Below are positions 3,209 through 15,830 of a stretch of DNA of 39,953 nt, piece after piece. Both the position numbers and the translations under genes were made by a program. Under the pieces are notes generated by a model. That model saw only the letters and a program-made list of their open reading frames with translations, ran no database searches and was not told the DNA's origin. Each line of letters opens with the position of its first letter. The stretch's first letter is position 1. The stretch is from a virus (lineage: Duplodnaviria > Heunggongvirae > Uroviricota > Caudoviricetes): IMG/VR virus record IMGVR_UViG_2563366923_000006, one strand, 5' to 3'.

Positions 3209-3464
3209 GCCAAGACTACACACAGCATAAAGTTGTGGTGCCGGGTGCCTCCCGGTGCCTGGCGAAGGTTGCACACCAGGCGGGTGGGTATCCACAGAAG
3301 GTCGACTGTCAGCCTCAACCTTAACCCGCGTGCGCTGAGCCGCATTCACCACAACGCTAAGGATTCTCTCTGGTTGAAAATACTTAGCTGTTATGTGCCT
3401 GTCTTTTCACCACTTCAGGCTCGGTGGTATCCTTTTAAGCCCGTATACATAAAAGGAAAATCAA

Positions 3465-3911: not shown

Positions 3912-4115
3912 TTAACCTCCAGATTTCCGCGCATCTAAAGGCGCATTCTCATTTGGTGTGAACTGAATAGTTGTGCTGATATTGATTAATGCCCCGACAC
4001 ACAAGACTACGCACTCAGAGCAGATAGCAACTTCATCTTTTCCGCCTTTGGCGATGATTTTTTTTGCCTGCAGCTCGTTTGCGCCACAAAACGAGCATGT
4101 GAAATAACGGTTCAT
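3912..4115 (-). CDS. Small ClpX-type zinc-finger protein (C4), first gene after the PL-like promoter
   Basis: CSFCG...CSEC motif closely matches the ClpX N-terminal zinc-binding domain signature (recalled). Confidence 0.5.
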   Translation of the reverse strand: MNRYFTCSFCGANELQAKKIIAKGGKDEVAICSECVVLCVGALINISTTIQFTPNENAPLDARKSGG

Positions 4116-9313: not shown

Positions 9314-10309
9314 GTGACCGTGAGAGCACTACTGACCCCTGAAATAGCCCCGCGTATGGGGATTGTATTGTTCAGACCAGGTTCAGAGCTGATGCCCCTG
9401 TTTATGCAGGGGCGTGTCCTGCTGGAGCCTGAGCCGGAACGTTATTCATCTTTCGCCAGTGGTGCCGTTCCGGCGGCATCACAACCGCTGGCGGATGATC
9501 CTGCCGTTAGGGCCGTGTTCCGCAATGAGGCAGTGATCCGTCGTGCTGGTGGCGTGGAATGTCTTGAAAGCTGGTTACTTCGTGAAAAAGGCTGCCAGTG
9601 GCCTCATTCCGACTGGCACAGCGAGAACATGACCACAATGCGACACGCGCCGGGCGCGATCCGTCTGTGCTGGCACTGCGATAACCAGCTGCGCGATCAG
9701 TTCACGGAACGGCTGGAATCAATGGCAACGGATAACTGTGCCCGCTGGGTGTTGTCTGTAGTCCGTCGGGATCTCGGTTTTGATGATAACCATGCCGTGA
9801 CAATGCCGGAACTGTGCTGGTGGTTGATTCGTAATGACCTGGCGGATGCCTTACCGGAAAGTGCAGCCCGTAAGGCACTGAGATTACCGAAGCCTGTTGT
9901 GCCGTCTGTCACCCGGGAAAGTGACCTTGTGCCTTCGGTTCCTGCCACCAGCATCATCCAGGATAAGGCGAAAAAGGTGCTGGCGCTGAAAGTGGATCCG
10001 GAGTCGCCGGAGTCTTTTATGTTACGCCCAAAACGCCGCCGCTGGGTTAATGAAAAGTACACGCGCTGGGTTAAGACACAGCCGTGTGCATGTTGTGGAA
10101 AGCCTGCTGATGATCCCCACCACCTGATAGGCCACGGTCAGGGTGGAATGGGTACAAAAGCGCATGACCTCTTTGTGTTGCCTTTGTGCAGAAAGCATCA
10201 CGACGAGCTGCATGCGGATACCGTGGCATTTGAAGAGAAGTATGGCTCTCAGCTGGAGCTGATATTTCGTTTTATCGATCGTGCGCTGGCAATTGGCGTA
10301 TTGGCGTAA
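9314..10309 (+). CDS. DUF968-like phage protein with C-terminal HNH-like Cys/His motifs
   Basis: CACCGK...HHLIGHG...LCRKHHDELH at C-terminus; GTG start. Confidence 0.65.
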   Translation: MTVRALLTPEIAPRMGIVLFRPGSELMPLFMQGRVLLEPEPERYSSFASGAVPAASQPLADDPAVRAVFRNEAVIRRAGGVECLESWLLREKGCQWPHSDWHSENMTTMRHAPGAIRLCWHCDNQLRDQFTERLESMATDNCARWVLSVVRRDLGFDDNHAVTMPELCWWLIRNDLADALPESAARKALRLPKPVVPSVTRESDLVPSVPATSIIQDKAKKVLALKVDPESPESFMLRPKRRRWVNEKYTRWVKTQPCACCGKPADDPHHLIGHGQGGMGTKAHDLFVLPLCRKHHDELHADTVAFEEKYGSQLELIFRFIDRALAIGVLA

Positions 10310-10322
10310 GTGGAGAACGAGC

Positions 10323-11075
10323 ATGAACCTTGAAGCCTTACCAAAATATTACTCCCCAAAATCTCCAAAATTGAGCGATGACGCACCGGCGACAGGCTCA
10401 GGTGGTTTAACGATTACGGATGTGATGGCTGCGCAGGGGATGGTGCAGTCGAAAGCACCGCTTGGGTTTGCCTTATTCCTGGCAAAAGTTGGTGTTCAGG
10501 ATCCTCAATTTGCGATTGAAGGTCTGCTCAATTACGCGATGGCACTGGATAACCCGACATTGAACAAATTGAGTGAAGAAACCCGGTTACAGATCATCCC
10601 TTACCTTGTGAATTTTGCCTTTGCTGATTATTCCAGGTCTGCGGCAAGTAAGGCTCGCTGTGAGCATTGTGCTGGTACTGGATTTCATAATGTATTGCGC
10701 GAAGTGGTGAAACACTCCAGAAGCGGGGAATCTGTTATCAAGGAAGAGTGGGTGAAGGAACTATGTCAGCATTGTCATGGTAAGGGAGAAGTCAGCACAG
10801 CGTGCAGAGGGTGTAAGGGTAAAGGTATTGTCCTGGATGAAAAAAGGACCCGGCTTCATGGCACGCCTGTTTATAAGATTTGTGGGCGTTGCAATGGAAA
10901 CCGGTTTAGCCGTTTACCAACCACACTGGCGCGGCATCATGTCCAGAAGCTGGTACCAGACCTGACGGATTATCAGTGGTACAAAGGATATGCAGATGTC
11001 ATTGATAAACTGGTTACAAAGTGCTGGCAGGAAGAAGCATATGCAGAGATACAATTGAGAAAGGTGACAAGATAA
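10323..11075 (+). CDS. Putative late-gene antiterminator (Q-like) with four CxxCxGxG zinc-finger repeats
   Basis: Position just upstream of the late promoter; CEHCAGTG, CQHCHGKG, CRGCKGKG, CGRCNGNR repeats. Confidence 0.55.
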   Translation: MNLEALPKYYSPKSPKLSDDAPATGSGGLTITDVMAAQGMVQSKAPLGFALFLAKVGVQDPQFAIEGLLNYAMALDNPTLNKLSEETRLQIIPYLVNFAFADYSRSAASKARCEHCAGTGFHNVLREVVKHSRSGESVIKEEWVKELCQHCHGKGEVSTACRGCKGKGIVLDEKRTRLHGTPVYKICGRCNGNRFSRLPTTLARHHVQKLVPDLTDYQWYKGYADVIDKLVTKCWQEEAYAEIQLRKVTR

Positions 11076-11106
11076 ATGGTTTTCGCCGAAGATGACGACA
11101 TGATGC

Positions 11107-11135
11107 TTGCATTTTTCAAAAAATATGGATAAGAT
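11107..11135 (+). promoter_or_regulatory. Late promoter candidate (TTGCAT-N17-TAAGAT)
   Basis: Near-consensus -35/-10 with 17-bp spacer immediately after the Q-like gene. Confidence 0.5.
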
Positions 11136-11182
11136 TTTCCCAACGATGGGCTTTGTATGTCTACCGTTGATAAGATTTAGGA

Positions 11183-11206
11183 ACCCGCCACTGAGCGGGT
11201 TTTTTG
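11183..11206 (+). terminator. Rho-independent terminator downstream of late promoter (tR'-like)
   Basis: ACCCGC-CACTGA-GCGGGT hairpin followed by TTTTTT. Confidence 0.65.
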
Positions 11207-11327
11207 TACCTGTAAACTTGGTGCAGTACAGTAAACACGCTGGTGGTCGTGAATACTGACTTTTTATCTTGCTGGATTTTTAGACAAGAGTTATTGGTAT
11301 GTCATGTTAACCAGAAGGGAAAAAGAC

Positions 11328-11531
11328 ATGCTAAAACAGCAAGATATGACAGAAACCGCCGCCGCAGTCCTTCATTTCTTACCTGCTGACAAGTGGGTAA
11401 CGCCACGCATGATGACGAGAACTACCGGAGTAAGCGAAGCCCGGTGCCAGTTAATACTGACTCAGTTAGTTCTGGCGGGTCTGGCGAAGGATAACGGCGG
11501 GTACGGGAATAAATTCAGACGCTGCCAGTAA
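11328..11531 (+). CDS. Hypothetical small protein
   Basis: AAGGGA upstream of internal ATG; 67 aa. Confidence 0.4.
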   Translation: MLKQQDMTETAAAVLHFLPADKWVTPRMMTRTTGVSEARCQLILTQLVLAGLAKDNGGYGNKFRRCQ

Positions 11532-11681
11532 TGGCGGTTTCCTGCTGTGAAAATGGGCGGCTGGTGGGTGTTGGTAGCACCTGCCAGCCATTCGCTCATG
11601 CTTACTGGTCACAAGCGAACCACGGCCCACTGCTTTAGCGCAAAAGCAGAGTGAGCCTACCAGAGTTACGCTTACTGATCC

Positions 11682-12734
11682 ATGAAAAATACTGTAAAAA
11701 TAAACAGTGTTGATTTAATCAACGCTGATTGCCTGCATTTTATTCAGTCCCTGCCTGATGATTCCATTGACCTGATTGTTACCGATCCGCCTTACTTCAA
11801 GGTGAAACCTAACGGTTGGGACAATCAGTGGAAAGGGGACGAAGATTACCTTAAGTGGCTGGACCACTGTCTGGCCCAGTTCTGGCGGGTGTTGAAACCT
11901 GCCGGAAGCCTTTACCTGTTCTGTGGGCATCGCCTGGCATCTGATATTGAGATCATGATGCGTGAACGTTTCAACGTGCTTAACCATATCATCTGGGCGA
12001 AGCCGTCCGGACGTTGGAATGGGTGTAATAAAGAAAGTCTGCGCGCATATTTTCCTGCCACAGAGCGCGTTCTGTTTGCTGAACATTACCAGGGGCCATA
12101 TCGCGGCAAAAGTGACGGCTATGCGGCAAAAGAAAGGGAACTCAAACAGCACATAATGGCACCGCTGATATCGTATTTCAGGGATGCTCGTGCCGAACTG
12201 GGTATAACGGCAAAACAAATTGCCGAAGCCACAGGTAAGAAAAATATGGTTTCCCACTGGTTTGGTGCCAGTCAGTGGCAGTTGCCGAATGAGGCTGACT
12301 ATCGGAAGTTACAGGCACTGTTTTCCCGTATAGCGGCAGAGAAGTTTCAGGAACAACAACTGGAACAACCACACCACCAGCTGGTGGCATCTTATGATTC
12401 ACTGAATCGCAAATATTCTGAATTGCTGGATGAGTTTAAATCTCTCCGGCGCTATTTCTCCGTATCAGTTTCCGTGCCTTATACCGATGTCTGGACGCAT
12501 AAGCCCGTTCAGTTCTATCCGGGTAAACATCCGTGCGAGAAACCGGCGGATATGCTCCGGCAAATAATCAATGCCAGTAGTCGACCTGGTGATCTGGTTG
12601 CTGATTTCTTTATGGGATCCGGTTCCACAATAAAAGCAGCAATGGCGCTGGGGCGTCGGGCGTTAGGTGTTGAACTTGAGTCAGAGCGGTTTAATCAGAC
12701 GGTGAAAGAGGTAAGTGAACTGGTGGGGAAATAA
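11682..12734 (+). CDS. Orphan DNA N6-adenine/N4-cytosine methyltransferase (DPPY motif)
   Basis: IVTDPPY motif and later FxGxG; no adjacent restriction gene. Confidence 0.8.
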   Translation: MKNTVKINSVDLINADCLHFIQSLPDDSIDLIVTDPPYFKVKPNGWDNQWKGDEDYLKWLDHCLAQFWRVLKPAGSLYLFCGHRLASDIEIMMRERFNVLNHIIWAKPSGRWNGCNKESLRAYFPATERVLFAEHYQGPYRGKSDGYAAKERELKQHIMAPLISYFRDARAELGITAKQIAEATGKKNMVSHWFGASQWQLPNEADYRKLQALFSRIAAEKFQEQQLEQPHHQLVASYDSLNRKYSELLDEFKSLRRYFSVSVSVPYTDVWTHKPVQFYPGKHPCEKPADMLRQIINASSRPGDLVADFFMGSGSTIKAAMALGRRALGVELESERFNQTVKEVSELVGK

Positions 12735-15770: not shown

Positions 15771-15830
15771 GGGGCGGGTCAAATCCCTGTGACCTGACGT
15801 CTTCCGGACTGCCCGCCCCATCGTTTTTTT
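15771..15830 (+). terminator. Long GC-rich hairpin (GGGGCGGG ... CCCGCCCC) followed by T7 run; terminator and/or cos-region structure
   Basis: Inverted repeat and T-run read directly between HNH and terS. Confidence 0.45.

Follow-up and report, generated by a model that had tools for sequence, protein, structure and literature searches.

A likely late-gene antitermination cassette whose Qλ-family protein carries a predicted second zinc ribbon

The Q gene and its surroundings

The locus described here lies in a stretch of 39,953 nucleotides, which we call the window, from a virus of the Caudoviricetes (IMG/VR record IMGVR_UViG_2563366923_000006). Its coding features are the following:

9314-10309: 331-aa DUF968 protein with an HNH-like C-terminal region (YdfU-like), directly upstream of Q
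10323..11075, plus strand: Q antiterminator gene of the Qλ family, long-arm form, 250 aa and a stop codon
10323..10454, plus strand: codons 1-44, the N-terminal segment, counterpart of λ Q residues 1-44 (torus/nozzle) by phmmer alignment
11304-11531: 75-aa ORF with no Pfam match, between the terminator tR′ and the holin gene
11682-12734: N6/N4 DNA methyltransferase, between tR′ and the holin gene

The Q gene starts at an ATG codon located 6 nt after GGAGAA and 13-14 nt past the stop codon of the preceding gene. Upstream of it are genes for a LexA-DNA-binding-domain protein, RusA, a KilA-N protein and the YdfU-like DUF968/HNH protein, and it is followed by the 75-aa ORF, the N6/N4 DNA methylase, holin S, an endolysin-sized ORF and Rz/Rz1. 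This order bears out a first-pass annotation of the sequence, which had placed the gene at the Q position. The pairing of ydfU with ydfT is common to the K-12 Qin prophage, SfV and Ayreon. The endolysin-sized ORF had no Pfam match, and its SfV counterpart is annotated as lysin (R). Lying between tR′ and the holin gene, the 75-aa ORF and the methylase would be among the late genes that depend on Q. After the methylase, a second putative terminator is annotated in the SfV record.

The first-pass annotation had described the product as a Q-like late regulator and had proposed a profile search against antiterminator families as a check. In that search, the protein matched the Pfam family PF03589 ('Antitermination protein Q') with 179.9 bits against a cut-off of 26.7 (E-value of 9.6e-54), and gave a full-length match to PHROG 127 ('anti-termination protein Q-like', E-value of 1.4e-108). 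A phmmer search retrieved the λ Q structures 7UBM, 7UBN, 4MO1 and 7UBJ (E-value of 1e-37), and the alignment to λ Q (7UBM) covers two blocks of the 250-aa protein, residues 1-120 and 160-250. An AF2 model (pLDDT 89.8) had 7UBN_Q as its top PDB match in Foldseek (E-value of 9e-15, TM 0.78), and ranks 2-8 were λ Q every time. Chain Q of 7UBN is λ Q within a loading complex that contains NusA. Both the fold and the full-length homology reproduce the parts of λ Q, namely the torus segment, the helix-turn-helix body, the zinc-ribbon arm and the C-terminal helix. Since sequence, profile and fold all place the protein in the Qλ family, as the first reading had it, we assign it as a full-length Qλ-family antiterminator on this homology. 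The Pfam search gave no match of the protein to Q21 (PF06530) or Q82 (PF06323), so that the assignment is to the Qλ family only.

Several individual positions can be followed in the alignment. In the N-terminal segment, G39 is kept and V6 aligns with L6 of λ Q; near the C-terminus, λ L202 and T206 correspond to L245 and T249. At the arm tip, T133-G137 of λ Q (TELWG) aligns with T176-G180 (TRLHG), which puts R177 in the position of λ E134. In λ Q, residues G39, L202 and T206 are among those that matter, the substitution E134K raises DNA binding, and the N-terminal residues refold into a 'torus/nozzle' at the RNA-exit channel (PMC9388147).

Close relatives of the locus are abundant. A 978-bp region was 100% identical to vB_EcoM-720R4, 99.4% to mEp460 and Stx2c-converting phages, and 97.4% to Shigella phage SfV. 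The records of vB_EcoM-720R4, Ayreon, mEp460 and SfV name the gene Q or late gene regulator, while the Stx2c-converting phage rows carry no annotated feature at this region. The Q region was found at ≥80% identity in 2951 of 5426 complete E. coli genomes, where it is annotated 'antitermination protein Q' or ydfT. The protein is 94% identical to E. coli K-12 YdfT/QuuQ (b1559), the putative antitermination protein Q of the Qin prophage.

Promoter, pause element and terminator

Downstream of the Q gene, four regulatory features were placed:

11107..11135, plus strand: PR′-type late promoter, with -35 TTGCAT at 11107-11112, a 17-nt spacer and -10 TAAGAT at 11130-11135
Within the -35/-10 spacer: segment TTCAAAAA/TGGA, candidate Q-binding region
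11142..11150, plus strand: putative σ70-dependent pause element AACGAT (+1 to +6), then GGG, by alignment to λ PR′
11179..11206, plus strand: intrinsic terminator tR′, with stem GGAACCCGC/GCGGGTTTTT, loop CACTGA and a T-tail, ending at about +63

The promoter TTGCAT-N17-TAAGAT had been called near-consensus. It is present and homologous to λ PR′, but the adjective is wrong, because the hexamers match the consensus at only 3/6 (-35) and 4/6 (-10) positions, which is chance level in the window: hexamer pairs that match equally well are found about 7.5 times per kb on each strand. A consensus promoter scan did not list the site. Support for the promoter comes instead from homology and conservation. 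When aligned to λ PR′ (TTGACT-N17-TAAATT), both hexamers and the 17-nt spacer between them fall in register, and the ten bases CAACGATGGG are identical to λ PR′ at an equal distance from the -10. Based on this λ-identical pause element, we place the inferred start (+1) at 11142. In λ, too, AACGAT occupies +1 to +6. In λ, AACGAT is a -10-like element that causes σ70-dependent promoter-proximal pausing and lets Q load (PMC9388147).

The first-pass annotation overlooked this pause element, AACGATGGG, although no other feature of the locus speaks as strongly for Q action. Its sole plus-strand copy in the window is the one at +1. A minus-strand copy at 15817-15825 lacks PR′-like surroundings and was taken as chance. 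A second TAAGAT, at 11171-11176, was considered as a further pause or promoter element and rejected, because it is absent from relatives.

The spacer reads TTTTCAAAAAATATGGA here and TATTGAATAAAATTGGG in λ, where it forms the region of the Q-binding element, and it is similar among the close long-arm loci (T-TTC-AAAA..TGG). λ has a -35-like TTGACT adjoining the pause element, which is the site for the repositioned σ region 4. Long-arm Q loci instead have a T-rich TTTTCC or TTTTCT in this place (11135-11141 in the window). With TTGACT replaced by TTTTCC, the details of loading may differ from λ. Just 5′ of the -35, the bases GACATGATGC at 11097-11106 are common to λ PR′ (GGCATGATAT) and most close long-arm loci, and they are missing from loci where Q is only about 40% identical. 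This match could reflect residual homology, or mark an UP-like element or an extended Q-binding site.

A strong terminator about 60 nt after the promoter had also been claimed, and a hairpin with a T-run does occupy 11179-11206, ahead of the lysis genes. The tR′ hairpin has a ΔG of -13.1 kcal/mol; folding of the 74 nt that begin at +1 gives -21.2 kcal/mol (z -2.2). Both the SfV and the Ayreon record list a terminator here. The promoter and terminator scan did not list tR′, probably because the AGGAA ahead of the stem can form A-U and G-U pairs with the T-run, which lengthens the stem and leaves the tail short of T; folding and per-sequence hairpin detection recovered it. An Rfam search of 10900-11700 at permissive E-values gave nothing meaningful. 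Applied to the leaders of related loci, RNAalifold recovered a 5′ hairpin and put the terminator out of register, as loop lengths differ, and per-sequence detection was used instead.

The 5′ end of the leader, at 11142-11168 (+1 to +27), can pair as AACG.AUGGG ... CUA.CCGUU, and the λ leader likewise has AACGA...UCGUU. Across 16 loci, this pairing is kept in 96.9% of cells, compared with 30-48% when the partner is slid. Covariation was absent among these 16 loci (260-288 of 500 shuffles reached the observed values), as the pause element, which hardly varies, makes up the 5′ arm.

In Ayreon (L002), a cassette of about 650 bp sits exactly at tR′, between terminator copies AACCCGCCACTGAGCGGGTTTTTT at 3357-3383 and 4037-4063. 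It contains two ORFs, one of 37 aa and one of 141 aa, the latter with a lipoprotein-type signal (MTVMKKVLIAAIGFCLVGC...), and looks like a moron recombined into the terminator. A two-piece match that spans 1655 bp was also seen in mEp460, in many of the Stx2c-converting phages and in some E. coli genomes, all of which therefore probably carry the same insert. The window, at 11181-11205, has the single-copy, 'empty' state of the terminator.

We examined the cassette across related loci in one scan of species-representative genomes with an alignment of close homologues, which yielded 19 loci whose Q homologues are 38-98% identical. Their hosts are Escherichia, Shigella, Enterobacter, Mangrovibacter, Kosakonia, Phytobacter, Atlantibacter, Scandinavium, Buttiauxella and Entomohabitans. 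One contig, labelled as a metagenome-assembled genome of Veillonella parvula (L006), carries a 94%-identical Q cassette, with downstream sequence identical to that of an Escherichia ruysiae locus (L005) over the compared stretch. The Veillonella assignment is almost certainly a binning error and does not indicate a Firmicute host.

All three signals, the promoter, the pause element and the terminator, are found again in 15 of the 19 loci, which span nine genera and Q identities of 40-98%. In these 15, the pause element lies 41-70 nt past the Q stop codon, both hexamers are in the same register, and a GC-rich hairpin with a T-run ends at +50 to +68 in every case. AACGATGGG is exact in 13 loci, and the other two differ by one or two bases. 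The terminator stems are alike (ACCCGC/GCGGGT, CCTCGC/GCGGGG, CCCGCC/GGCGGG), with loops that vary freely. The ORFs of cassette loci at 40-73% identity are intact, at 250-273 aa. Among the loci where the cassette was missing, the ORF is interrupted in one (L020) and the downstream sequence differs in another (L015); the rest duplicate loci that are already in the count. The arrangement expected for Q-mediated antitermination, as originally proposed, is thus borne out by a PR′-type promoter, a λ-identical pause element and a terminator that are in register in 15 loci and λ. Two loci with a Q of about 40% identity, one from E. coli (L019, ~2490-2530) and one from Entomohabitans (L021, ~2470-2510), have tRNA-like sequences after the terminator. 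In Stx phages, tRNA genes are similarly placed.

Cysteine knuckles and the extra zinc module

The cysteine motifs of Q, with the two segments that they delimit, are as follows:

C113 and C116: knuckle 1, CEHCAGTG, strict CxxCxGxG
C148 and C151: knuckle 2, CQHCHGKG, strict CxxCxGxG
C161 and C164: knuckle 3, CRGCKGKG, strict CxxCxGxG
C187 and C190: knuckle 4, CGRCNGNR, CxxCxGxR with R at the last position
10659..10787, plus strand: extra predicted zinc module, comprising knuckle 1, a long β-hairpin (aa 121-147) and knuckle 2, which λ Q lacks
10803..10904, plus strand: λ-equivalent zinc-ribbon arm, comprising knuckle 3, the arm tip T176-G180 and knuckle 4, in the part that aligns with λ Q 117-207

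Eight of the nine cysteines in Q fall in these four CxxC knuckles, and all eight are invariant in a 37-sequence alignment with identities down to 28%. None of 200,000 shuffles of the protein reached three CxxCxG motifs, so the motifs are not due to chance. The first-pass annotation had reported four CxxCxGxG repeats of DnaJ type. Four Cys-pair knuckles are indeed present, but only three are strict, the fourth being CxxCxGxR; likewise, the DnaJ label suits the knuckle motif, but the rest of the protein has no DnaJ feature and the DnaJ profile PF00684 stays below its cut-off. The accompanying remark that this is unlike the single zinc site of λ Q stands, as the two knuckles of λ Q make one zinc ribbon.

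In the alignment, C161, C164, C187 and C190 correspond to λ C118, C121, C144 and C147, which would make knuckles 3 and 4 the four-Cys ribbon of λ Q. Residues 121-159 are unmatched in the HMMER alignment to λ Q, and the extra Cys motifs form an insertion of about 43 aa in the λ Q zinc-ribbon arm. The AF2 model has strands 121-131 and 137-147 between knuckles 1 and 2, and short strands on either side of each knuckle pair, in the fashion of a zinc ribbon. In λ Q, the two knuckles share one Zn, and the arm (residues 114-152) contacts the Q-binding element, σ region 4 and the β′ zinc-binding domain (PMC9388147). The extra module is inserted at the arm base, with which λ Q touches the β′ zinc-binding domain of RNA polymerase.

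To place this architecture within the family, we surveyed 54 representatives of clusters at 50% identity, restricted to proteins of 185-300 aa. Four Cys-pair knuckles were present in 29 of the 54; all four are CxxC in 8 of the 29, and the third is CxC in the other 21. Only two knuckles, as in λ, were found in 8 representatives, and 17 were fragments or degenerate. There are full-length short forms in which the sole Cys pairs are a knuckle-3-type CxC and knuckle 4, 25 aa apart. Across the family, the spacing from knuckle 1 to 2 is variable (14-63 aa), while those from knuckle 2 to 3 (13 aa) and from knuckle 3 to 4 (23-27 aa) are fixed. Judged by these counts, the four-knuckle form makes up the majority of Qλ-family sequence diversity, and λ Q is therefore a short form.

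The four knuckles might constitute a genuine DnaJ-type Cys-rich domain with interleaved Zn sites (1+4 and 2+3), which would equip Q, besides antitermination, with a substrate-binding or thiol-active module like that of DnaJ, or at the least with the V-shaped DnaJ fold. Q does match DnaJ_CXXCXGXG with 30.9 bits, with weak profile matches also to TIGR02349 and anti-TRAP (NCBIfam RtpA, E-value of 6.6e-5; PDB 3LCZ, E-value of 0.11), but the score lies below the gathering cut-off of 32.7 and there are three strict repeats only. Precomputed Pfam tables list PF00684 (PF00684.26) for most Q homologues, which makes the assignment borderline. Likewise, Foldseek matched the Q model to the cysteine-rich region of DnaJA2 with a probability of 0.98 over 88 columns, but the structural match is poor (rmsd 8.9 Å, TM 0.14-0.24, E-value of 0.2), and profile searches detected neither a J domain nor a DnaJ C-terminal domain in Q. 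We do not take the four Cys knuckles for a chaperone domain.

We favour two tandem zinc ribbons, formed by knuckles 1+2 and 3+4, over the interleaved topology of DnaJ, because the segment from knuckle 3 to the C-terminus is homologous to λ Q, in which these two knuckles bind one Zn, and because short forms carry knuckles 3 and 4 alone. The spacings argue likewise, since that from knuckle 3 to 4 is fixed and λ-homologous and that from 1 to 2 is variable; a hairpin of variable length between knuckles 1 and 2 suggests that these form an adjacent pair. In the AF2 model, moreover, a β-hairpin separates knuckles 1 and 2 and strands flank each pair. The interleaved, DnaJ-like pairing is unlikely, and it keeps some weight because the 13-aa spacing from knuckle 2 to 3 resembles that of anti-TRAP and the DnaJ Zn2 site. 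Under the tandem arrangement, knuckles 1 and 2 with their variable β-hairpin are predicted to be a second zinc ribbon inserted at the arm base, and we predict two Zn per Q monomer.

Proposed mechanism and comparison with known systems

Taken as a whole, the region is very probably the late-gene antitermination cassette of a lambdoid prophage of the SfV/Qin type, with a Qλ-family protein that bears a predicted second zinc ribbon as an insertion. By homology to λ, RNA polymerase would start at the PR′-type promoter, near 11142, after which σ70 region 2 would re-bind the -10-like AACGAT (+1 to +6) and the enzyme would pause at about +15 to +17. Q would then bind the DNA of the -35/-10 spacer through its helix-turn-helix body and zinc-ribbon arm, and contact σ region 4 and the β′ zinc-binding domain. 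Together with NusA, its N-terminal ~44 residues would fold into a nozzle at the RNA-exit channel that blocks formation of the terminator hairpin, much as the λ Q and NusA nozzle on the RNA-exit channel prevents the terminator hairpin (PMC9388147). The modified polymerase would read past 11179-11206 into the small ORF, the methylase, the lysis genes and the structural genes. If Q is absent, transcription would stop at the terminator and leave an RNA of about 63 nt.

The cassette could alternatively be an inactive relic, its gene kept by riding in cryptic prophages such as K-12 Qin while the promoter and terminator go unused. Qin is indeed cryptic and YdfT only 'putative', and the literature searched contained no experimental work on this protein or on any long-arm Qλ-family protein. 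However, the Q ORF and the lysis genes downstream are intact, Q is 100% identical in sequenced phage records including vB_EcoM-720R4 and Stx2c-converting phages, and intact Q ORFs with 40-73% protein identity occur in other genera together with the pause element and the terminator. We consider the relic reading very improbable, and retain that of a late-gene antitermination cassette.

A more tentative idea concerns the way in which such a protein loads. Long-arm Q may possibly engage RNA polymerase unlike λ Q, with a contact of the extra ribbon and its variable β-hairpin to DNA or RNA polymerase compensating for the missing TTGACT; we regard this as doubtful, though conceivable. If it were true, λ Q would be the minimal member of the family and not the typical one. 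The structurally characterised λ Q is the short form, and the commoner form of the family carries a putative second zinc module. As an identical Q occurs in records of Stx2c-converting phages, loading of this Q subtype could bear on their late-gene expression. As a discovery the locus matters little, being very common and already annotated: the Q gene, its role and the terminator are annotated in SfV and Ayreon, the gene also in K-12 as the putative antitermination protein Q (YdfT), and the logic of the cassette is textbook.

Among known systems, the Cys-rich domain of DnaJ/Hsp40 (PF00684) and anti-TRAP (RtpA) resemble Q in repeating the CxxCxGxG knuckle four times. Unlike DnaJ, Q has no J domain or client-binding domain, its fourth motif has R in place of the last G, most of its long-arm relatives have CxC as their third knuckle, and its topology is likely tandem and not interleaved. 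The Q21 and Q82 families likewise share the regulatory role and cassette logic that Q is proposed to have here (PMC9388147).

The likeness to λ extends over the whole system. The two Q proteins are 34% identical overall, and their torus segments, four-helix bodies with helix-turn-helix, arms and C-terminal helices align. The 17-nt promoter spacer, the pause element within CAACGATGGG and the genome position of Q are shared as well. Compared with λ Q, the protein described here has four Cys pairs instead of two and an insertion of about 43 aa at the arm base. The -35 is weaker (TTGCAT against TTGACT), and the terminator ends at about +63, whereas tR′ is much further from the start in λ, at about +194.

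Closest of all are K-12 YdfT, SfV, mEp460, Ayreon, vB_EcoM-720R4 and the Stx2c phages, whose Q proteins are 94-100% identical, 250 aa long and equipped with all four motifs. In relatives of the K-12 YdfT/SfV type, the downstream promoter, pause element and terminator, as well as the upstream ydfU-like gene, are as in the window. Some SfV/Ayreon-type relatives differ by the cassette of about 650 bp at a duplicated terminator, and otherwise in essentially nothing.
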